NCBI RefSeq assembly: GCF_963921235.1
Contig: NC_086097.1
Coordinates: forward strand, 132,992,001-133,056,000
Direction of reading: 5' to 3'
Length of the DNA stretch: 64,000 nucleotides
From: Mobula hypostoma
Lineage: Eukaryota
The notes under the pieces: generated by a model
What the model was told of the DNA's origin: nothing
The model's input: the letters and a program-made list of their open reading frames with translations, nothing else
Database searches by the model: none
Translations under genes and position numbers: made by a program
Part shown: in pieces, positions 10,608 to 60,745 of the stretch
Layout of the letters: each line of letters starts with the position of its first letter
Position numbering within the stretch: position 1 is the stretch's first letter

Positions 10608-13174
10608 ATTTGTGGGTTGAGTTAAGGAAATGCAAGGGTAAAAGGATGTTGATGGCAGTTATATACAGGCCTCCCAACAGTGGCTGGGAGGTGGACCACA
10701 GGTTACAACAGGAAATAGAAAAGGCGAGTCAAAAGAGCAATGTTATGGTAGTCATGGGAGATTTTAACATGCAGGTCGATTGGAAAAATCAGGTTAATAA
10801 TGGATCTCCAGTGAGTGAGTTTGTTGAATGCCTAAGAGATGGTTTTTTTCAGAGCAGTTTGCCGTTGAGCCTAGTATACTGAATTGGGTGTTATGTAATG
10901 AACCGGAGGCGATTAGAGAGCTTAAGGTAAAAGAACCCTTAGGAACCAGTGATCACAATAGGACTGAGTTCAACTTGAAATTTGATAGGGAGAAAGTAAA
11001 GTCTGATGTAGCAGTATTTCAGTGGAGTAAGGGAAATTACAGTGATATGAGAGAGGAGTTGACCAAAGTAAATTGGAAGGAGTTGCTAGTAGGGATGTCA
11101 GCAGATCAGCAATGGCATACATTTCTGGGAAAAATGAGGAAGGTGCAGGACATGTCTATTCCAAAATTAAAGAAATACTCAAATGGCAAAATAGTACAAC
11201 CATAGCTGACAAGGGAAGTCAAAGCTAATGTAAAAACAAAAGAGAGGGCATACAACAAAGCAAAAATTATTGGGAAGATAGAGGATTGGGAACTTTTTAA
11301 AAACCTATGGAGAGCAACTAAGAGTGGGAAAGATGAAATATGAAAGCAAGCGAGCAAATAATATCTAAGTGGATAGTAAAAGTATTTTCAAGCATTTAAA
11401 AAATAAAAAAGAGATGAAAGTGGATATAGGACTGCTAGAAAGTAAGGTAGGAAAAGTAATAACAGGGACAAGGAGATGGCAGATGAACTAAATGAGTATT
11501 TTGTATCAGTCTTCACTGTGGAGGACACTAACAGTATGCCTGATGTTGTAGTGTGTGAAGGAAGAGAAGTGGGTGCAGTTACTATTACAAGAGAGAAGGT
11601 GCTCAAAAAGCTGAAAGACCTAAAGGTACATAAGTCATCCGGACCAGATGAACTGCATCCTAGGGTTCTGAAAGATATAGCGTTAGAGATTGTGGTGGCA
11701 TTAGAAAAGATCTTTCAGAAATCGTTGGACTCTGGAATGGTGCCAGAGGACTGGAAAATTAGAAATGTCACTCCATTCTTTAAGAAAGGAGGAACGCAGC
11801 AGAAAGAAAATTATAGACCAGTTAGCCTGACCTCAGTGGTTGGGAAGATGTTAAGGATGAGGTGATGGAGTACTTGGTGACACAGGACAAGATAGTATAA
11901 AGTTAGCATGGTTTCCTTCAGGGAAAATTCTGCCTGACGAACCAATTGGAATTCTTTGAGGAGATTACAAGTAGGATAGATAAAGAATATGCAGTGGATG
12001 TTGTATATTTGGACTTTCAGAGGCCTTTGACAAGGTGCCACACATGAGGCTGCTTACCAAGTTAAGAGCCCATGGTATTACAGGAAAGTTATTAACATGG
12101 TTAGAGCACTGACTGATTGGTAAGAGGCAGCGAGTGGGAATAAAAGGATCCTTTTCTGGTTGGCTGCCAGTGACTAGTGGTGTTCCGCAGGGGTCAGTGT
12201 TGGGACCACTTCTTTTTATGCTGTATATAAATGATCTAGATGATAGAATAGATGGCTTTACTGCCAAGTTTGCAGATGATACAAAGATTGGTGGAGGGGC
12301 AAGCAGGCAGGATGCAGAAGGTCAGATTAGGGGAATGGGCAAGAAAGTGGCAAATGAATTATAATAGTTGAAAATGCTTGGACATGCACTTTGGTAGTAG
12401 AAATAAGTGTGCAGACTATTTTCTAAATGGGGAGAAAAGCCAAAAATCTGAGATGCAAAGGGATTTGGGAGACCTTATGCAGAACACCCTAAAGGTTAAT
12501 TTTCAGTTTGAGTCAGTGGGTGAGGAAGGCAAATGCCATGTTAGCATTCATTTCAAGAGGTCTAGAATACAAGTGATGCTGAGAGTTTATAAGGCAATTG
12601 TGAGGCCTCTCCTTGAGTATTGTGTACAATTTTGGGTCCTCATTTTAGAAAAGATGTGCTGACATTGGAGAGGGTCTAGAGGAGGTTTATAAGGATGATT
12701 CCAGGAATGAAAGAGTTATCATATGAGGAGCGTTTGATGGCTCTGGGTCTGTACTCACTAGAATTCAGAAGGTTGAAGGGGGAGATCTCATTGAAACCTT
12801 TCGAATGTTGAAAGGCCTAGACAGAGTAGGTGTGGAAAGGATGTTTCCCACGATGGGAGAGTCTAGGACAAGAGGGCACAGCCTCAGGACAGAGGGTCAC
12901 CCTTTCAGAACAGAGATGTGGAGAAATTTCTTTAGCCAAAGGGTGGTGAATTTGTGGAATTTGTTGTCATATGCAGCTGTGGAGGCCAGGTCATTGGGTG
13001 TATTTAGGGCAGAGACTGATAGGTTTCTGTTTGGACAGGACATCAAAGGTTACAGGGAGAAGGCGGGGAAATGGGGTTGAGGAGGAGAAAAAAGGGGATC
13101 ATCCATGATTGAATAGTGGAGCAGACTCGATGGGCCAAATGGCCTAATTCTGCTCGTATGTCTTATGGTCTTAT
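10608..13174 (+). mobile_element. 5'-truncated degenerate CR1 LINE (in galr1 intron 1)
   Basis: Fragmented APE/RT ORFs 10610-13080 (YRPPN, MGDFN, GVPQGSVLGP, FADD) and (CTTATGGT)n tail. Confidence 0.9.
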
Positions 13175-27400: not shown

Positions 27401-28662
27401 TGTTCTGTGTATGAGTCCTGGCCCTACGTCCTGTTCCCAAGGAGGGGTCCTGGATCTGTTTTATGTGTATGAGTCCCTGCCCTACATCCTGTTCCCAAGG
27501 AGGGGTCCTGGCTCTTCTCGTCCAAGGCTCCGTGCTCCTGAAGGCCCTCGTCCAGTCCATGCATAGTCCAGTTCTATCCTAGTCCTGTCCATGTGCCATT
27601 ACCTGTCCTTCTGTCTCGCCCTACCCAGGAGTTCCTCACCCAAGCCATGTCTAGTACTGTAGCCTCGTCTTGTCCTTGCCTAGTTCTGGAGTCCGAGCCC
27701 GAGTCAAGTCCCAGGTTCTGGGTCCTTGCCCAGTCTCTGGCTTGGAGTCCATACCCAAGCCTCAAGCCTCAAGCCTCAAGACCCCAAGCCTGTCTCCAAG
27801 CCTCAAGACCCCAGCCTCCAGTCCTGCAGTCATGTCATGCCCTTGCTGGGGTCTGAGCCCGAGGCAAGACCCAGGTTCTGGGTCCTTGTCCAGTCTCTGG
27901 CTCGGAGTCCAAGTCCAGCCTCCTTGTTCATGGTTCCTTGTCCGGTTTCCCTGTCTAGTCCATGTCCTAGCCCAAGTCAGCATTCTTGCCCCTGCTCCTT
28001 GTCTGTATCCTGTCACATCCCTACTCTAGTCAAGTCCTGTTCCTTGTACTTCAGTGTCTGTGTCTGGCATTTGGGTCCATTCCCAATGCCTCATTATGAG
28101 ATATTATTATTACACCATTCCAGAATCTCCCCTCCCTGTCTGCTCCTCAATGTCTCTGTTACTATTGTGGTGTCCATAAAAACACAGTAGAGTTATTGCC
28201 CCCTTCCTGTTTCTGACTTCCACCCACACTGACTCAGTAGACAATTTCTCCATGATTTCCTCCTTTTCTGCAGCCATGATACTATAACTGATTTGCAATG
28301 CCACACCTGCACCTGTTTTGACTCCTTCCCTGTCCTTTTTGAAACATCTAAAGCCTGGCACTCTCAGCAGCCATTCCTGCCCCTGAGACATCCAAGTCTC
28401 TGTAATGGCAACAGCATCATAGTTCCACGTATTGATCCATGCTCTAAGTTCATCCACCTTGCTTATGATACTCCTTGCATTAAAATAGACAACCAACTGA
28501 GTACATCTTTGCTCTATCATATGCCTATCCTTCCTCACAAACTCCCTACAAACTATCCCTACTTGTGCTCCAACTGCCCCATCTTCTGCCTCTTCACTCC
28601 TATTCCCACACCCCTGCAAATCTAGTTTAAACCCTCCCCAACAGCATTAGCAAACCTCCCTC
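24500..28662 (-). mobile_element. Degenerate CR1 LINE of a second subfamily (end of ORF1 plus ORF2), interrupted by a solo LTR
   Basis: Minus-strand ORFs 28110-28619 (NARS, ITETW), 26576-26908 (GDSDH), 25591-26322, 25229-25651 and 24775-25104. ORF1 end GRFANAVGEGLN* at 28622-28660. Confidence 0.9.
26922..28101 (+). mobile_element. Probable solo LTR (Gypsy-like) inserted in CR1
   Basis: Begins TGTCA and ends TGAGA (decayed TGACA). Flanked by 5-bp TATTA (26917-26921, 28102-28106); CR1 is continuous across it. Non-coding with internal tandem repeats. Strand tentative. Confidence 0.7.
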
Positions 28663-45179: not shown

Positions 45180-47243
45180 ATTAACGGAAGTGATCTGAGG
45201 CAGAGTGGTAGGGCTTTGGCTCATTTGGGCTTCGGCGATATCGGGTCAAGTCGAAGTAATTTGCCTGTGTAGAATACAGACAGGAAGTATGTCTGTGAGG
45301 CCGGTGTTCTGTACTGGGTGTCAGATGTGGGAAGTCCGGGAGACTCCCAGCCTCCTGGACGGCGACATCTGCACCAGATGCGCTGAGCTGCAGCTCCTTA
45401 GGGATTGTGTTATGGAACTGGAGATGCAGCTCGATGACCTTCATCTGGTCATGGAAAGTGAAGAAGTGATAGAGAGGACCTATAAGCAAGTAGTCACACC
45501 CGGGCCTCGGGAGACAGATAAGGGGGTAACAGTCAGGAGAGGGAAGGGCAGGAGCTAGATACTACAGAGTGCCCCTATGGCTGTTCCCCTTAACAATAAG
45601 AACTCCTGTTTGAGGACTGTTGGGGGATGGCCTACCTGGGGAAAGCAACAGTGGCCACGCCTCTGGCACAGAGTCTGGCCCTGTGGCTCAGAAGAGTAGG
45701 GAAAGGCAGAGGATGGCAGCAGTGATAGGGGACTCTATAGTTAGGGGGTCAGACAGGTGACTCTGTGGATGCAGGGAAGAAATGCGGATGGTAGTTTGCC
45801 TCCCAGGTGCCAGCGTCTGGGATATTTCTGATCATGTCCATGATATTCTGAAGTGGGAAGGTGAACAGCCAGAGGTCATGGTACATATTGGTACCAACCA
45901 CATAGGTAGGAAAAGGGAGGAGGTCCTGAAAGCAGACTACAGGGAGTTAGGAAGGAAGTTGAGAAGCAGGACCTCAAAGGTAGTAATCTCAGGAGAGGAG
46001 AGGCTGTACTTGATCTGGTAGTGGGAAATGAACCTGGTCAGGTGTCAGATGTCCTGGTGGGAGAGCATTTTGGAGGTTGTGATCACAACTCTATCTCCTT
46101 TACCACTGCTCTGGAGAGGGATAGGAGCAGACAATTTGGGGAAACATTTAATTTCGGTAGTGGGAAGTATGATGCTATTAGACAGAAACTTGGAAGCATA
46201 AATTGGAAACAGATGTTCTCAGGGAAATGTACAGCAGTAATGTGGCAAATGTTCAAGGGATATTTGCGTGGCATTCTGCATAGGTACGTTCCAATGAGAC
46301 AGGAAAAGGATGGCAGGGTACAGGAACCATGATGTACAAAGGCTGTTGAAAATCTAGTCAAGAAGAAAAGAAAAGCTTACGAAAGGTTCTAAAAACTAGG
46401 TAATGATAGAGATCTAGAAGATTATAAGGCTAACAGGAAGGAGTTTAAGAATGAAATTAGGAGAGCCAAAAGGGACCATGATGAGCCTTGGTGAGCAGGA
46501 TTAAAGAAAACCTCAAGGCATTCTGCAAGTATGTGAAGAGCAAGAGGATAATACGTGAGAGAATAGGACTAATCAACTGTGACAGTGGAAAAGTGTGTAT
46601 AGAACCGGAGGAGATAGCTGAGGTACTTAATGAATACTTTGCTTCAGTGTTCTTTTTTTTTTATAATTTTTTTATTGAAGTTCATCATCAAACAAACATT
46701 TCCATAAGATGTATTTCAGATACTGTACATATATATCATATAATCATATTTGTCACAAATCTCCACATAATACTTCTCTGAGGTATACACTTATAGAAAG
46801 GAGAGGAAAGAAAGAACAATTGAAATAAGAAAGCTATGTACAAAGTAGGGAGTGATCTTTTTTTCACAATATATTCACCTGTGAGAGCAAAATCAGGCCT
46901 ATGAGATGTTGTGTAGTTAAACCATTTTTCCCAGTATGAATCAAATTGTTCCAACTTATGATTAACAGATGCTATTATCTTCTCCACTTCAGTATTTACT
47001 ACGGAAAAGGATCTTGGTGATTGTGGGGATGACTTACAGTGGATTGAAAAGCTTGAGCATATAGATATTAAGAAAGAGGATATGCTGGAGCTTTTGGAAA
47101 GCATCAAGTTGGATAAGTCACCGGGACCAGACGAGATGTACCCTAGTCTACTGTGGCAGGCGAGGGAGAAGATTGCTGAGCCTTTAGCAATGATCTTTGC
47201 ATCATCAATGCGGACGGGGGAGGTTCTGAAGGATTGCAGATGT
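45180..47243 (+). mobile_element. Degenerate CR1 with ORF1 joined directly to mid-ORF2 (deletion or chimera)
   Basis: ORF1 remnants (CTGC..CTRC, GDS, GTNH) run to ~45995, then GEAVLDLVVGNEPGQVSD of ORF2 follows directly. Confidence 0.85.
46653..46985 (-). mobile_element. Short L1/Tx1-like 3' fragment with poly(A) tail, nested in CR1
   Basis: Poly-T plus TTTATT at the left end; EKIIASVNHKLEQFDSYWEKW C-terminal remnant; degenerate 12-bp TSD gcttcagtgttc / acttcagtattt. Confidence 0.7.
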
Positions 47244-53329: not shown

Positions 53330-54035
53330 AACTAGAATTTGAGAAACAGAAGCAGGATAGGGTGTGTTTTACTAGTCTATCCTGTTTTACCAGGATAGGA
53401 CAGATGGTAAAAAAATAAAGATAGCATGTAGTCAGACTGTCAGGAAGGGCAGGCAGCTGACGAGACTTAGTTGCAGCCAACAGGCTGAGTAGGTGGATGA
53501 TCTTGTTGCAATATTTCAGATTGCCAGGTAAGATGTTGTAGCCATCACTGAATCATGGCTGAAGGATGGTTGTAGTTGGCTGTAGTTGTTATATCGGAGG
53601 GATAGGCAGGTAGGCAAAGGGGGTGGCAGGGGCTGTTGGTAAAGAATGGCATCAAATCAATAGAAAGATGTGACACAGGATAGGAAGATGTTGAATCCTT
53701 GTGGGTTGAGTTAAGAAACTGCAAGGAGAAAAGGACGTTGATGGCAGTTATATACCGCCCTCTCAACAGTGGCTGGGAGGTGGACCACAGGTTACAACAG
53801 GAAATAGAAAAGGTGAGTCAAAAGGGCAATGTTATGCTAGTCAAGGGAGATATTAACATGTAGGTCAATTGGGAAAATCAGGTTCGTGATGGGTCTCAAG
53901 CGAATGAGTTTGTTGAATATCTAATAGATTGCTTTTTAGAGCAGTTTGTCGTTAAGCCACGAGGAGATCCGTTATACTAGATTGAGTGTTACGTAATGAA
54001 CCGGAGGTGATTAGGGAGTTTAAGGTAAAAGAACT
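53330..54035 (+). mobile_element. Older degenerate CR1, 5' part (APE region), interrupted by the young CR1
   Basis: Decayed ITESW, WVELRNCKG and VIYRP motifs; near-collinear with 10608-10935. 5' boundary approximate. Confidence 0.8.
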
Positions 54036-54293
54036 ATTTTTTTTTTCTCCAACGGCTTTCTGAGAGGCGGGACTGCGCAGGCGTGTGACGTCGGGCAGTG
54101 CAGCGCGGCAGATTTAAAAGGGCAGACATCCTGCTTCGGATTTGATTCGAAGAAGGAGTCTGAGAGTCTGAGTGGGAGTGCCGAAAAAGAGATTTTTGAA
54201 ATTTTCGTTATTTTTTTTCTCCAACGGCTTTCTGAGAGGCGGGACTGCGCAGGCGTGTGACGTCGGGCAGTGCAGCGCGGCAGATTTAAAAGG
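54036..54293 (+). promoter_or_regulatory. Tandemly duplicated internal promoter-like module in the CR1 5'UTR
   Basis: Identical ~75-bp blocks at 54047-54121 and 54219-54293, each preceded by a T tract. Each holds GGCGGG, TGCGCAGGCG, TGACGTC and TTTAAAA motifs. Confidence 0.65.
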
Positions 54294-54455
54294 AACAGAG
54301 CCTCATAGAGCGGGCAGCGTAGTTTGCGGGCTGCGGAGTGAGCCGGGAGCAGAGTGAAGACTTAAGGGCTTCGGCTCACCGGGCTTAGGCGGAAGCGGGC
54401 GAGGGGAGGAAGGTTTGACATTCATTTTCTGTTGCTATTTGAGGAGAGGGGCATT

Positions 54456-55391
54456 ATGACTGTGAGGGCAGTTTGCTGTTCTCGGTGTCGGATGTGGGAG
54501 GCCCTGGAGTCTCCAAGCCTCCCGGACGTCTACATCTGCGCCAAGTGCATCGAGATGCAGCTCCTAAGGGACCGCGTTACGGAACTGGAGCTGCAGCTCG
54601 ATGACCTTCGTCTGGTCAGGGAGAGTGAGGAGGTGATAGAGAGGAGTGGAAGGCAGGTGGTCACGCCGGGGCCACGGGAGGCAGACAAGTGGGTCACGGT
54701 TAGGAGGGGGAAGGGGAAAAGGAAGGTGATGGGGAGTACCCCGGCGGCTGTGCCCCTTAACAACAGGTACTCCTGTTTGAGTACTGTTGGGGGGGACAGC
54801 TTACCCGGGGGAAGCGACAGTGGCCCTGCCTCCGGCACAGAGTCTGGCCCTGTAGCTCAGAAGGGTAGGGCAAGGAAGAGGAGGGCAGTTGTGATAGGGG
54901 ACTCGATAGTAAGGGGGTCAGATAGGCGATTCTGTGGACGCAGTCCAGAGACTCGGATGGTAGTTTGCCTCCCTGGTGCCAGGGTCCGGGATATTTCTGA
55001 TCGTGTCCAAGATATCCTGAAGTGGGAGGGTGAAGAGCCAGAGGTCCTGGTACATATAGGTACCAATGACATAGGTAGGAAAAGGGATGAGGTCCTGAAA
55101 GAAGAATATAGGGAGCTAGGAAGGGAGTTGAGAAAAAGGACCGCAAAGGTAGCAATCTCGGGATTACTGCCTGTGCCACGCGACAGTGAGAGTAGGAATG
55201 CGATGAGGTGGAGGATAAATGCGTGGCTGAGGGATTGGAGCAGGGGGCAGGGATTCAAGTTTTTGGATCATTGGGACCTCTTTTGGCGCAGGTGTGACCT
55301 GTACAAAAAGGACGGGTTACACTTAAATCCTCGGGGGACCAATATCCTGGCAGGGAGATTAGCGGGGGCTACTGAGGTGACTTTAAACTAG
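54456..55391 (+). CDS. CR1 ORF1p: zinc finger / leucine zipper plus SGNH (GDSL-like) esterase
   Basis: ATG at 54456. CSRC...CAKC zinc motif, heptad LRDRVTELELQLDDL, and SGNH blocks VIGDS, LPGA, GTND and DGLHLN, the known CR1 ORF1 architecture. Confidence 0.9.
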   Translation: MTVRAVCCSRCRMWEALESPSLPDVYICAKCIEMQLLRDRVTELELQLDDLRLVRESEEVIERSGRQVVTPGPREADKWVTVRRGKGKRKVMGSTPAAVPLNNRYSCLSTVGGDSLPGGSDSGPASGTESGPVAQKGRARKRRAVVIGDSIVRGSDRRFCGRSPETRMVVCLPGARVRDISDRVQDILKWEGEEPEVLVHIGTNDIGRKRDEVLKEEYRELGRELRKRTAKVAISGLLPVPRDSESRNAMRWRINAWLRDWSRGQGFKFLDHWDLFWRRCDLYKKDGLHLNPRGTNILAGRLAGATEVTLN

Positions 55392-58300
55392 AATGGTTGG
55401 GGGGTGGGAATCAAATTAAAGCGGCTAGGTGTGAGGAGGTTAGTTCACAACAGAGGGATGGGAACCAGTGCAGAGAGACAGAGGGGTGTAAAGTGAGCGT
55501 AGAAGCAAAAAGTACAAAGGGGAAAAGTAAAAGTGGCAGGCCGACAAATCCAGGGCAAGCATTAAAAAGGGCTAAGAGAGTTGTAAAAGAGTGCCTGAAG
55601 GCTTTATGTGTCAATGCAAGGAGCATTCGTAATAAGGTGGATGAATTGAAAGTGCAGATTGTTATTAATGATTATGATATAGTTGGGATCACAGAGACAT
55701 GGCTCCAGGGTGACCAGGGATGGGAGCTCAACGTTCAGGGATATTCAATATTCAGGAGGGATAGACACGAAGGAAGGGGAGGTGGGGTGGCGTTGCTGGT
55801 TAAAAAAGAGATTAACGCAATAGAAAGGAAGGACATAAGCCGGGAAGATGTGGAATCGATATGGGTAGAGCTGCGTAACACTAAGGGGCAGAAGACGCTG
55901 GTGGGAGTTGTGTACAGGCCACCTAACAGTAGTAGTGAGGTCGGAGATGGTATTAAACAGGAAATTAGAAATGTGTGCAATAAAGGAACAGCAGTTATAA
56001 TGGGTGACTTCAATCTACATGTAGACTGGGTGAACCAAATTGGTAAAGGTGCTGAGGAAGAGGATTTCTTGGAATGTATGCGGGATGGTTTTTTGAACCA
56101 ACATGTCGAGGAACCGACTAGAGAGCAGGCTATTCTGGACTGGGTTTTGAGCAATGAGGAAGGGTTAATTAGCGATCTTGTCGTGAGAGGCCCCTTGGGT
56201 AAGAGTGACCATAATATGGTGGAATTCTTCATTAACATGGAGAGTGACGTAGTTAATTCAGAAACAAAGGTTCTGAACTTAAAGAGGGGTAACTTTGAAG
56301 GTATGAGACATGAATTAGCTAAGATAGACTGGCAAATGACACTTCAAGGATTGACGGTGGATATGCAATGGCAGGCATTTAAAGGTTGCATGGATGAACT
56401 ACAACAATTGTTCATCCCAGTTTGGCAAAAGAATAAATCAAGGAAGGTAGTGCACCCGTGGCTGACAAGAGAAATTAGGGATAGTATCAATTCCAAAGAA
56501 GTAGCATACAAATTAGCCAGAGAAAGTGGCTCACCTGAGGACTGGGAGAAATTCAGAGTTCAGCAGAGGAGGACAAAGGGCTTAATTAGGAAGGGGAAAA
56601 AAGATTATGAGAGAAAACTGGCAGAGAACATAAAAACGGACTGTAAAAGCTTTTATAGATATGTAAAAAGGAAAAGACTGATAAAGACAAATGTAGGTCC
56701 CCTGCAAACAGAAACAGGTGAATTGATTATGGGGAGCAAGGACATGGCAGACCAATTGAATAATTACTTTGGTTCTGTCTTCACTAAGGAGGACATAAAT
56801 AATCTTCCAGAAATAGTAAGGGACAGAGGGTCCAGTGAGATGGAGGAACTGAGCGAAATACATGTTAGTAGGGAAGTGGTGTTAGGTAAATTGAAGGGAT
56901 TGAAGGCAGATAAATCCCCAGGGCCAGATGGTCTGCATCCCAGAGTGCTTAAGGAAGTGGCCCAAGAAATAGTGGATGCATTAGTGATAATTTTTCAAAA
57001 CTCGTTAGATTCTGGACTAGTTCCTGAGGATTGGAGGGTGGCTAATGTAACCCCACTTTTTAAAAAAGGAGGGAGAGAGAAACCGGGGAATTATAGGCCG
57101 GTTAGCCTAACGTCGGTGGTGGGGAAACTGCTGGAGTCAGTTATCAAGGATGTGATAACAGCACATTTGGAAAGCGGTGAAATGATCGGACAAAGTCAGC
57201 ATGGATTTGTGAAAGGAAAATCATGTCTGACGAATCTCATAGAATTTTTTGAGGATGTAACTAGTAGAGTGGATAGGGGAGAACCAGTGGATGTGGTATA
57301 TTTGGATTTTCAAAAGGCTTTTGACAAGGTCCCACATAGGAGATTAGTGTGCAAACTTAAAGCACACGGTATTGGGGGTAAGGTATTGGTGTGGGTGGAG
57401 AATTGGTTAGCAGACAGGAAGCAAAGAGTGGGAATAAACGGGACCTTTTCAGAATGGCAGGCGGTGACTAGTGGGGTACCGCAAGGCTCAGTGCTGGGAC
57501 CCCAGTTGTTTACAATATATATTAATGACCTGGAAGAGGGAATTAAATGCAGCATCTCCAAGTTTGCGGATGACACGAAGCTGGGTGGCAGTGTTAGCAG
57601 TGAGGAGGATGCTAAGAGGATGCAGGGTGACTTGGATAGGTTGGGTGAGTGGGCAAACTCATGGCAGATGCAATTTAATGTGGATAAATGTGAAGTTATC
57701 CACTTTGGTGGCAAAAATAGGAAAACAGATTATTATCTGAATGGTGGCCGATTAGGAAAAGGGGAGGTGCAACGAGACCTGGGTGTCATTATACACCAGT
57801 CATTGAAAGTGGGCATGCAGGTACAGCAGGCGGTGAAAAAGGCGAACGGTATGCTGGCATTTATAGCGAGAGGATTCGAGTACAGGAGCAGGGAGGTACT
57901 ACTGCAGTTGTACAAGGCCTTGGTGAGACCACACCTGGAGTATTGTGTGCAGTTTTGGTCCCCTAATCTGAGGAAAGACATCTTTGCCATAGAGGGAGTA
58001 CAAAGAAGGTTCACCAGATTGATTCCTGGGATGGCAGGTCTTTCATATGAAGAAAGACTGGATGAACTGGGCTTGTACTCGTTGGAATTTAGAAGATTGA
58101 GGGGGGATCTGATTGAAACGTATAAGATCCTAAAGGGATTGGACAGGCTAGATGCAGGAAGATTGTTCCCGATGTTGGGGAGGTCTAGAACGAGGGGTCA
58201 CAGTTTGAGGATAGAGGGGAAGCCTTTTAGGACCGAGGTTAGGAAAAACTTCTTCACACAGAGAGTGGTGAATCTGTGGAATTCTCTGCCACAGCAAACT

Positions 58301-58396
58301 GTTGAGGCCAGTTCATTAGCTATGTTTAAAAAGAAGTTAGATATGGCCCTTGTGGCTACAGGGGTCAGGGGGTATGGAGGGAAGGCTGGGTTCTGA
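55388..58396 (+). CDS. CR1 ORF2p: APE endonuclease + reverse transcriptase (no N-terminal AUG)
   Basis: About 1000 open codons. APE motifs NARS, ITETW, GVVYRPP, MGDFN, SDH; RT motifs YRPVSLTS, YLDFQKAFDKV, GVPQGSVLGP, FADD, DLGV. Frame is open from 55376; the start shown assumes entry by -1 frameshift. Confidence 0.92.
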   Translation, partial: LEWLGGGNQIKAARCEEVSSQQRDGNQCRETEGCKVSVEAKSTKGKSKSGRPTNPGQALKRAKRVVKECLKALCVNARSIRNKVDELKVQIVINDYDIVGITETWLQGDQGWELNVQGYSIFRRDRHEGRGGGVALLVKKEINAIERKDISREDVESIWVELRNTKGQKTLVGVVYRPPNSSSEVGDGIKQEIRNVCNKGTAVIMGDFNLHVDWVNQIGKGAEEEDFLECMRDGFLNQHVEEPTREQAILDWVLSNEEGLISDLVVRGPLGKSDHNMVEFFINMESDVVNSETKVLNLKRGNFEGMRHELAKIDWQMTLQGLTVDMQWQAFKGCMDELQQLFIPVWQKNKSRKVVHPWLTREIRDSINSKEVAYKLARESGSPEDWEKFRVQQRRTKGLIRKGKKDYERKLAENIKTDCKSFYRYVKRKRLIKTNVGPLQTETGELIMGSKDMADQLNNYFGSVFTKEDINNLPEIVRDRGSSEMEELSEIHVSREVVLGKLKGLKADKSPGPDGLHPRVLKEVAQEIVDALVIIFQNSLDSGLVPEDWRVANVTPLFKKGGREKPGNYRPVSLTSVVGKLLESVIKDVITAHLESGEMIGQSQHGFVKGKSCLTNLIEFFEDVTSRVDRGEPVDVVYLDFQKAFDKVPHRRLVCKLKAHGIGGKVLVWVENWLADRKQRVGINGTFSEWQAVTSGVPQGSVLGPQLFTIYINDLEEGIKCSISKFADDTKLGGSVSSEEDAKRMQGDLDRLGEWANSWQMQFNVDKCEVIHFGGKNRKTDYYLNGGRLGKGEVQRDLGVIIHQSLKVGMQVQQAVKKANGMLAFIARGFEYRSREVLLQLYKALVRPHLEYCVQFWSPNLRKDIFAIEGVQRRFTRLIPGMAGLSYEERLDELGLYSLEFRRLRGDLIETYKILKGLDRLDAGRLFPMLGRSRTRGHSLRIEGKPFRTEVRKNFFTQRVVNLWNSLPQQTVEASSLAMFKKKLDMALVATGVRGYGGKAGF

Positions 58397-58492
58397 GTTG
58401 GATGATCAGCCATGATCATAATAAATGGCGGTGCAGGCTCGAAGGGCCGAATGGCCTACTCCTGCACCTATTTTCTATGTTTCTATGTTTCT

Positions 58493-60745
58493 AACTCTTG
58501 AAACCAATGATCACGATATGATTTAATTCAACTTGAAATTGGACAGGGAGAAAGTGAAGTCTGATGTAGCAGTATTTCAGTGGAGTAAGGAAAACTACGG
58601 TGGTATGAGAGAGGAGTTGGCCAAAGTAAATTGGAAGGAGCTGCTGGCAGGGATGCTAGCAGAGCAGCAATGGTGTGCATTTGTGGGAAAAATGAGGAAG
58701 GTTCTGGACACATGTATTCCAAAAATGAAGAAATTCTCAAATGGTAAAACAGTACAGCCCTAGCTGACAAGGGAAGTCAAAGCTATTGTAAAAGAAAAAG
58801 AAAGGGCATACAACAAAGAAAAATTAGAGGGAAGATAGAGGATTTGGAATTTTAAAAAATCATTAGAAGGGAAAAGATGAAATATGAAAGCAAGTGAGCA
58901 AATAATATCAAAGTGGATAGTTAAAGCTTTTTCAAGTATGTAAAAAATAAAAGAGAAATGAGAGTAGATATAGGACCATTAGAAAGTGAGGCAGGAGAAA
59001 TAATAACGGGGGGCAAGGAGATGGCTGATGAGTATTTTGTACCATTCTTCACTGTGGAAGACACTAGCAGTATGCCTGATGTTGTAGTGTGTGAAGGAAG
59101 AGAAGTGGGTGCAGTTACTATTACAAGAGAGAAGGTGCTCAAAAAGCTGAAAGACCTAAAGATACATAAGTCACCCAGACCAGATGAATTGCAACCTAGG
59201 GTTCTGAAAGAGGTAGTGTTAGAGATTGTGGTGGCATTAGAAATGATCTTTCAGAAATCATTGGACTCTGGAATGGTGCCAGAGGACTGGAAAATTGCAA
59301 GTGTCACTCCACTCTTTAAGAAAGGAGGAACGCAGCAGAAAGAAAATTTTAGAGCAGTTAGCCTGACCTCAGTGGTTGGGAAGATGTTAAGGATGAGGTA
59401 ATGAAGTATTTGGTGACACAGGACAAGACAGTATAAAGTCAGCATGGTTTCCTTCAGGGAAAATCCTGCCTGATGAACCTGTTGGAATTCTTTGAGGAGA
59501 TTACAGGTAGGATAGATAAAGAGGATGCAGTGGATGTTGTATATTTGGACTTTCAGAAGGCCTTTTGACAAGGTGCCACACATGAAGTTGCTTACCAAGT
59601 TAAGAGCCCGTGGTATTACAGGAAAGTTACTAACATGGTTAGAACATTGGCTGATTGGTAAGAGGCAGAGAGTGGAAATAAAAGGATCCTTTTCTGGTTG
59701 GCTGCCAGTGACTAGTGGTGTTCCGCAGGGGTCGGTGTTGGGACCACTTCTTTTTATGCTGTATATAAATGATTTAGATGATGGAATAGGTGGCTTTGTT
59801 GCCAAGTTTGAAGATGATACAAAGATTGGTGGAGGGGCAGGTAATGTTGAGGAAACAGGTAGGATGCAGAAGGACTTAGACAGATTGGGGGAATGAGCAA
59901 GAAAGTGGCAAGTGAAATACAATGTTGGAAAATGCATGGTCATGCACTTTGGTCGTAGAAATAAATGTGCGGACTATTTTTTAAATGGGGAGAAAATCCA
60001 GGAATCTGAGATGCAGAGGTACTTGGGAGTCCTTGTGCAGAACACTCTAAAGGTTAACTTACAGGTCGAGTCATTGGTGAGGAAGGCAAATGCCATGTTA
60101 GCATTCATTTCAAGAGGTCTAGAATACAAGAGCAAGGATGTGATGCTGAGGCTTTATAAAGCACTGGTGAGGCCTCACCTTGAGTATTGTGAACAGTTTT
60201 GGGACCCTCATCTTAGAAAAGATGTGCTGACATTGGAGAGGGTCCAGAAGAGGTTCACAAGGATGATTCCAGGAATGAAAGAGTTAACATATGAGGAACA
60301 TTTGATGGCTCTAGATCTGTACTCACTGGAATTCAGAAGGATGGGGGTGGGGGAGGTCTCATTGAAACCTTTCGAATGCTGAAAGGCCTGGATGGAGTAA
60401 ATGTGGAAAGGATGTTTCCCATGGTGGGAGAGTCTAAGACAAGAGGGCACAGCCTCAGGATAGAGGGGCACCCTTTCAAAACAGAGAGGTGGAGAAATTT
60501 CTTTAGCCAGAGGGTGGTGAATTTGTGGAATTTGTTGCCAGATGCAGCTGTGGAGGCCAGGTTGCTGGGTGTATTTAAGGCAGAAATTGATAGGTTCTTG
60601 ATTGGACATGGCATCAAAGGTTACGGGCAGAAGGCCGGGAACTGGGGTTGAGGAGGAGAAGGAAAAAAGTATTAGCCATGACTGAATAGCGGAGCAGACT
60701 CGATGGGCCATATGGCGTAATTCTACTCCTATGTCTTATGGTCTA
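58493..60745 (+). mobile_element. Older degenerate CR1, 3' part (RT and 3' tail)
   Basis: Frameshifted RT ORFs 58958-60651 (GVPQGSVLGP, FEDD, RPHLEYC); ends in tgtcttatggtct tail. Confidence 0.9.

Follow-up and report, generated by a model that had tools for sequence, protein, structure and literature searches.

An intact CR1-type long interspersed nuclear element (LINE) lies in the 64,000-nucleotide (nt) stretch of the ray Mobula hypostoma analysed here (contig NC_086097.1, positions 132,992,001 to 133,056,000 of the forward strand; hereafter the window), and its two open reading frames (ORFs) meet at a U_UUA_AAC heptamer. Comparison of this junction with those of its relatives suggests that programmed -1 ribosomal frameshifting at the heptamer, yielding an ORF1-ORF2 fusion of 1313 amino acids (aa), is the best explanation of how ORF2 is translated, with a probability of roughly 0.8. 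The initial annotation of the window had put forward such a frameshift with a fusion of about 1310 aa. The proposal receives strong support from the comparison, namely from codon conservation at the heptamer, from a constant -1 frame and from the switching of the ORF1 C-terminal dipeptide.

The ORF1-ORF2 junction in the window

The annotated architecture of the junction stands in nearly every particular. ORF1 ends ACT TTA AAC TAG with its stop at 55389-55391, and TTTAAAC at 55382-55388 is phased T_TTA_AAC. ORF2 lies in the -1 frame, open from 55376 and overlapping ORF1 by 16 nt, and the TGA at 55373 shuts this frame two codons upstream of the heptamer. In the third frame, an AUG at 55393 gives eight codons, and the G-rich tract begins 6 nt past the heptamer (GG at 55395). 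The first in-frame AUG of ORF2 was correctly placed at 56000 and inside the APE endonuclease domain past the NARS motif (55613; the AUG falls in MGDFN), but it is codon 209 and not about codon 202. A frameshift site is expected to have an X_XXY_YYZ heptamer in zero-frame phase, followed by an open -1 frame, and the junction has both.

TTTAAAC by itself is common in the window, occurring 10 times on the forward and twice on the reverse strand. TTTAAACTAG is found twice (55382 on the forward strand, 28631 on the reverse), each time at a CR1 ORF1/ORF2 junction, the latter belonging to a second CR1 copy in which it lies about 150 nt ahead of that copy's own APE region. The case against chance is the conservation of the heptamer, not its rarity.

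Could ORF2 simply start at its first AUG? An APE profile built from eight APE regions and searched against PDB retrieved L1 endonuclease structures, whereas a single-sequence PDB search with the APE region gave no match. A start at codon 209 would leave out the invariant NxRS motif together with the positions that align to E43 and Y115 of the L1 endonuclease, residues with catalytic roles. Because these would be lost, ORF2 cannot sensibly begin there.

Conservation of the heptamer in related DNA

An alignment of CR1 junctions had been suggested as a check on the frameshift proposal, and it came out in favor of it. A metagenome scan, with a pattern lying upstream of the junction by about 400 nt, returned 49 loci. 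Of these, 25 stop short of the junction and were left out, 21 have a CR1-type junction and 3 belong to another type; with the two copies in the window, the 21 make 23 junctions. When sites were placed by best match in hand-set windows, which may flatter decayed copies, the heptamer was exactly TTTAAAC in 20 of the 23, the exceptions being GTTAAAC, TATAAAC and TTTAAAT. When the ORF1 stop was located independently by a profile lacking its last 14 columns, the exact heptamer stood ahead of 14 of the 16 CR1-type stops, the other rows being off the contig, frame-broken or of another type. The APE match follows in the -1 frame throughout the undamaged loci (L001 to L004, L006, L011, L012 and the window).

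Codon use was compared in the 12 loci whose ORF1 has 100 or more open codons, at 22-78% identity. TTA encodes the last Leu in 12/12 (background 14%) and AAC the last Asn in 12/12 (background 33%). Elsewhere, two Leu columns that are likewise fully conserved are written with 4 and 5 codons, one other Asn column is AAT in 7 and AAC in 5, and third positions agree between deep lineages in just 3/19 to 8/18. The base preceding TTA, itself a third position, is T in 22 of the 23 junctions, over at least seven amino acids. Conservation of nucleotides beyond the needs of the protein is what a frameshift site should show, and on this comparison the junction feature is real and under nucleotide-level selection.

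Three scans of viral contigs found no relative, and the one weak GDSL match in a viral-contig scan (L072) lies in a stretch without such a junction. The pattern scan gave 21 matches, none similar to ORF1 or ORF2, and genome contigs held one weak partial match (L050), which was not used. In the contigs of four runs (three guessed to be RNA, one DNA), which indicate a high-copy family, none of the 40 variants listed, a minority of the 272 in all, falls inside the heptamer.

ORF1 endings among homologous proteins

The dipeptides LN, GN, KN and GF are the translations of U_UUA_AAC, G_GGA_AAC, A_AAA_AAC and G_GGU_UUU, which are counted among the most shifty heptamers (PMC5009743, excerpt). ORF1 homologs found numbered 167; of the 120 listed, 92 stop no more than 20 residues from where the profile ends, and LN is the ending of 82 of those 92, all homolog counts being of related and not independent sequences. 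Named proteins of shark, ray, coelacanth, frog, turtle, squamate and hummingbird origin are among those with the LN ending. Starting from P0118, a search retrieved 24 proteins, the named one among them being from snow crab; GN is the ending of 15 of the 24, and in 13 of these it comes after Gln or Lys. Clustering at 50% left 150 representatives, and the 112 with a usable tail end in LN (47), GN (13), KN (3) or GF (2), among other endings. Strict compatibility with X_XXY_YYZ was seen at the stop in 66 of the 112, as compared with 2-17 at offsets 1-11, and one of the four dipeptides occurs within 39 residues past the DGxH motif in 89/119, as compared with 3-43 in slid control windows. The endings swap several times on a tree from which they were left out. 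Lys, Gln, Glu, Met or Trp directly before LN was found in 0/41, a weak observation, as other positions are equally depleted. No read-through form was present in 32 further cluster members.

One clade (P0347, P0383, P0395, P0397, P0369, P0333, P0343, P0390, P0364) has K-N at the usual place followed by 10-12 extra residues, possibly an A_AAA_AAC site without an adjacent stop.

The LN ending is nearly invariant across jawed vertebrates, which raises the question of whether it is kept for the protein, as the C-terminus of the esterase, with the ORF2 linker glycines kept likewise and ORF2 expressed in some other way. Synonymous choice, however, is fixed at the heptamer codons only, and the ending shifts to GN, KN or GF in other ORF1 proteins. 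The alignment of the ORF1 family profile to the ORF1 esterase of PDB 4C1B (E 4.8e-45) reaches only profile position 318 of 322.

The G-run downstream of the heptamer

An exact G5 starts from the 11th base past the heptamer in 15 of 21 junctions, and at least four of the five bases are G in 19 of 21; the background is 8 of 5334 positions. The run codes for Gly, and a Gly-Gly linker could serve as a cleavage site in the fusion, which would again be a protein constraint. The first G of the run is nevertheless a third-position base kept over the codons of five amino acids (Leu, Gln, Lys, Arg and Ser), and the Gly codon in the run is GGG, although GGG makes up 27% of ORF2 Gly codons. Judged from these codons, the constraint on the G-run is one that acts on nucleotides. 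Protein constraint as the source of the conservation is largely refuted by the codon data, and we regard it as very improbable.

Points against frameshifting and other routes to ORF2

Several considerations weigh against frameshifting. The case for it is built wholly on sequence comparison, and on the tree the sampled DNA comprises only some 4-5 deep lineages. The ORF1 ending appears to switch among slippery-compatible pairs, with GN, KN and GF known from the protein and their codons deduced from it; the search profile (A2) already held LN, GN and FR endings (though not KN or terminal GF), and 20 of 107 unique tails are without any LN, GN, KN or GF dipeptide. No full-length natural ORF1-ORF2 fusion is present among the five longer homologs found. 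Downstream of the heptamer there is no conserved hairpin (z from -1.3 to +1.6 over 21 segments, about 0 in the window), no classical hairpin or pseudoknot at 5-9 nt and, in 9 of 19 loci including the window, no CCC within +29..+170 as a local C-run partner. An in-frame AUG stands ahead of the APE motif in 8 of 12 open junctions, in four of them at codon 5 (TAG-NN-ATG; the bird-like L003, L006, L007 and L011), so that the lack of an early AUG noted in the initial annotation holds in the window but not everywhere. A thirteenth row (L029) was dropped on account of a spurious APE-motif match. Among the 23 junctions, the fifth codon of the -1 frame is ATG four times, GTG three times and TTG once; the window has TTG at codon 6.

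Such start codons would suit termination-reinitiation, in which translation halts at the UAG of ORF1 and resumes nearby in the -1 frame, from an AUG in the bird-like copies or from a near-cognate codon, to give a separate ORF2p as in SART1 and L1. SART1 has a UAAUG stop-start (PMC3708506, excerpt), and because L1 ORF2 initiation is described as AUG-independent (PMC5009743, excerpt), the lack of an AUG alone proves little. However, codon 5 is a non-initiator in 15 of the 23 junctions (TCG, TGG, GAC, GCA and others), and AUGs before the APE motif, counted in 8 of 13 rows with the spurious L029 row included, agree with a chance expectation of 8.0 at an assumed 2.3% Met, or somewhat fewer at the measured 1.7%. 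Neither a phased X_XXY_YYZ nor switching among shifty heptamers is predicted by reinitiation. Early-AUG copies lacking the heptamer would, as the initial annotation reasoned, speak against frameshifting; those found retain the heptamer or a one-letter variant of it. We consider reinitiation unlikely as the explanation of the junction, and it may work alongside frameshifting, at least in birds.

A spliced or subgenomic RNA could also deliver ORF2, if TTTAAA acted in the manner of a TATA element or ..CTAG served as splice acceptor, and the site does have TTTAAA and a YAG end. Against this, the in-frame acceptors carry at most 6/15 pyrimidines, the AG moves to another phase in the TGA-type junctions (L028, L029), and the window ORF2 would remain without an AUG before the APE motif. 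The X_XXY_YYZ phase is needed by neither model. No GT..AG intron crosses the junction among the 15 joints listed, a small part of the 133 in the contigs of the four runs. We give this route very little credence.

A proposed mechanism

Under -1 frameshifting, most ribosomes would terminate at the UAG and release ORF1p. A minority would slip back one base on U_UUA_AAC, with tRNA-Leu and tRNA-Asn re-pairing on UUU and AAA, and would read CUA next and traverse a linker of 35-90 codons into ORF2. The predicted outcome is a high ORF1p:ORF2p ratio and an enzyme tethered to an ORF1p subunit, as with Gag-Pol.

Then, what would make the ribosome pause? The G-quadruplex offered as stimulator in the initial annotation does not hold up as a general one, because some lineages have only one G-run. 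In the 45 nt past the heptamer, L001 and L010 have two runs of two or more G and L014 has one; 13 of 21 junctions have one to three such runs and not four conserved G-tracts, and a quadruplex appears in the minimum-energy fold of 4 of 21 segments, the window included. No consistent long-range partner of the G-run was found across eight loci. The best duplex partner of the window G-run lies at 58441-58470 in the 3' untranslated region (UTR), at -20 kcal/mol, but the other seven loci did not show it. Structural stimulators lie 5-9 nt from the heptamer and the protein-dependent signals of arteriviruses and cardioviruses 11-14 nt (PMC5009743, excerpt), and the G5 at the 11th base, as found in 15 of 21 junctions, falls within the spacing of the latter. 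Because this spacing fits protein-dependent signals and no conserved fold was found, we infer with modest confidence that an unpaired G-run is bound by a protein and acts with the adjacent stop. Within the frameshift model, a pause caused by the stop and a protein on the G-run, not by an RNA fold, would have somewhat less than an even chance of being correct.

Host G-run binders include the hnRNP H/F family. A wider picture would be that of an ancient structure-free cassette (shifty heptamer, stop, 7 nt, G5) in CR1 from rays to birds and in deeper lineages, on which a bound host G-run binder or ORF1p itself switches on the Gag-Pol-like fusion, and whose heptamer has been swapped repeatedly among four viral-type sites. 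We hold this picture as a whole to be possible but doubtful.

Comparison with known systems

Esterase-ORF1 LINEs without the heptamer carry TGA-CTG at the ORF1 stop (L034:4452-4480, L038:740-750, L019:2940-2952), which we presume to be a readthrough context. In L034, whose ORF1 matches 4C1B, the APE motif follows in ORF1's own frame, and the layout of these LINEs fits candidate stop-codon readthrough. An AUG-stop overlap considered for L034 and L038 was rejected, as ORF2 shares the ORF1 frame in L034. For zebrafish ZfL2-1, Kajikawa et al. in 2012 reportedly concluded that ORF2 is probably made via suppression of the ORF1 stop, also yielding a fusion. ZfL2-1 (PDB 4C1B; PMC3905857, excerpt) shares its ORF1 class with CR1 by the profile match given above and differs in its probable frame-0 readthrough rather than a -1 slip, L034 showing such an in-frame layout, with TGA-CTG. 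These cases suggest that related LINEs, like retroviruses, have two routes to a fusion, here of ORF1 with ORF2, and that the fusion may be the conserved goal.

UUUAAAC is a coronavirus-type slippery heptamer, as annotated. The U_UUA_AAC sites of coronaviruses such as infectious bronchitis virus (PMC5009743, excerpt) share with CR1 the heptamer and its phase, a polymerase ORF in the -1 frame and a predicted Gag-Pol-like fusion. They differ in that CR1 is a retrotransposon of the non-LTR kind (LTR, long terminal repeat) in which the stop follows the heptamer immediately and a pseudoknot or hairpin 5-9 nt downstream was not found. The arterivirus nsp1beta/PCBP-stimulated frameshift, with CCCANCUCC placed 3' of its shift site at a distance of 11 nt (PMC5009743, excerpt), has in common with CR1 a short motif rich in a single base, the 11th-base spacing and no fold; CR1 has a G-run instead of a C-rich motif and another shift site, and the likeness is confined to the spacing. 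Among non-viral retroelements, some Penelope-like elements have an upstream ORF joined to the reverse transcriptase by a frameshift, as proposed here for CR1, but they are GIY-YIG elements with a pseudoknot and not APE LINEs (PMC8557442, excerpt). Dictyostelium TRE5-A and TRE3-A, two-ORF APE-type non-LTR elements, are described as requiring -1 frameshifting for ORF2 (PMC5911963, excerpt); unlike CR1, they belong to a different element group and have a different ORF1.

ORF2 translation in two-ORF LINEs is described as unclear (PMC3708506, excerpt), and the experimentally examined cases, L1 and SART1, use reinitiation (PMC3708506 and PMC5009743, excerpts). Both resemble CR1 in a bicistronic LINE RNA, a lower ORF2 level and coupling to the ORF1 stop, and differ in a separate ORF2p, the excerpts describing no slippery heptamer. 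The term CR1 is absent from the first 300,000 of the 449,034 characters of PMC5009743, and we found no published proposal of frameshifting for CR1 in the literature searched, an earlier suggestion in older CR1 papers being possible. What we propose is that recoding of a known kind operates in LINEs of a family for which we found no report of it, together with an apparently structure-free G-run at protein-stimulator spacing.

Other features of the element and the window

Table 1. Coordinates of the intact CR1-type LINE, its junction and a second copy, counted from the first letter of the window
Feature	Position	Strand	Remarks
Full-length CR1-type LINE	54031..58493	+	5' end approximate; sits within an older decayed CR1 endonuclease region
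5' UTR repeat	54039..54293	+	exact 83-bp direct repeat, 54039-54121 / 54211-54293 (blastn)
ORF1, 311 aa	54456-55391	+	N-terminal Cys motif; SGNH/GDSL esterase aa 146-294; ends L-N-stop
ORF2, 1006 codons, -1 frame	55376-58396	+	linker, APE endonuclease (NARS motif 55613), reverse transcriptase codons 566-783
Slippery heptamer T_TTA_AAC, ORF1 phase	55382..55388	+	exact in 20/23 junctions
ORF1 stop TAG	55389..55391	+	directly 3' of heptamer; next triplet TAG 18, TGA 2, other 3 of 23 junctions
G-run (G6), candidate stimulator	55399..55404	+	begins at 11th base past heptamer, 7-nt gap after stop
First in-frame AUG of ORF2, codon 209	56000..56002	+	within MGDFN motif; equivalent of L1 endonuclease M143
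3' tail	58472-58493	+	8-bp repeats TTTCTATG
Second CR1 copy, junction	28611..28631	-	diverged, truncated; heptamer 28631-28625, TAG, 7 nt, G4 run; APE homology from 28481

The ORF1 esterase domain was assigned by Pfam to PF13472 (E 1.8e-15), and ORF2 to the APE endonuclease families PF03372/PF14529 followed by the reverse transcriptase PF00078. The closest named protein to ORF1, at 99% identity, is from Mobula hypostoma. CR1-type LINEs end in a 3' tail of short tandem repeats, not poly(A), and the tail of the window element is of the expected kind. The assignment to the CR1 clade rather than to L2, made from ORF1 relatives in birds, reptiles and sharks, is provisional.

On translation, the flanks of the intact element (53500-54030 and 58494-60650) are consecutive parts of one decayed APE region, and no clear target-site duplication was found in the flanks inspected. 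GATTTAAAAG trails each copy of the 83-bp repeat in the 5' UTR, and 35 bases at the beginning of the element also match 10902-10936 of the window. A further stretch (45289-45994) is 82% identical to ORF1, breaks off short of the junction and is joined to another CR1 ORF2 fragment. Ray host gene models with CR1 ORF1 sequence (P0025, P0062, P0064, P0115, P0210, P0211; RPS24, TMEM204, ABHD14A-like, HAO2 and VSIG10L2 among them) would reflect exonisation or annotation errors. P0021 bears the label of a Pseudomonas aeruginosa SGNH hydrolase, but it ends in LN and shares 60% identity with the ray LINE ORF1; the label is likely due to contamination.

Implications

Among the repeats of birds, reptiles and cartilaginous fish, CR1 is a dominant one. 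If the frameshift is true, the CR1 enzyme would be an ORF1-ORF2 fusion, the ORF2 starts in current use and engineered CR1 constructs may be wrongly drawn, and LINE activity would be tied to cellular factors that tune frameshifting. The G-run may represent a new class of stimulator, in a cassette of about 25 nt. Should the protein-controlled reading also be true, a major vertebrate transposon family would carry a protein-controlled -1 frameshift.

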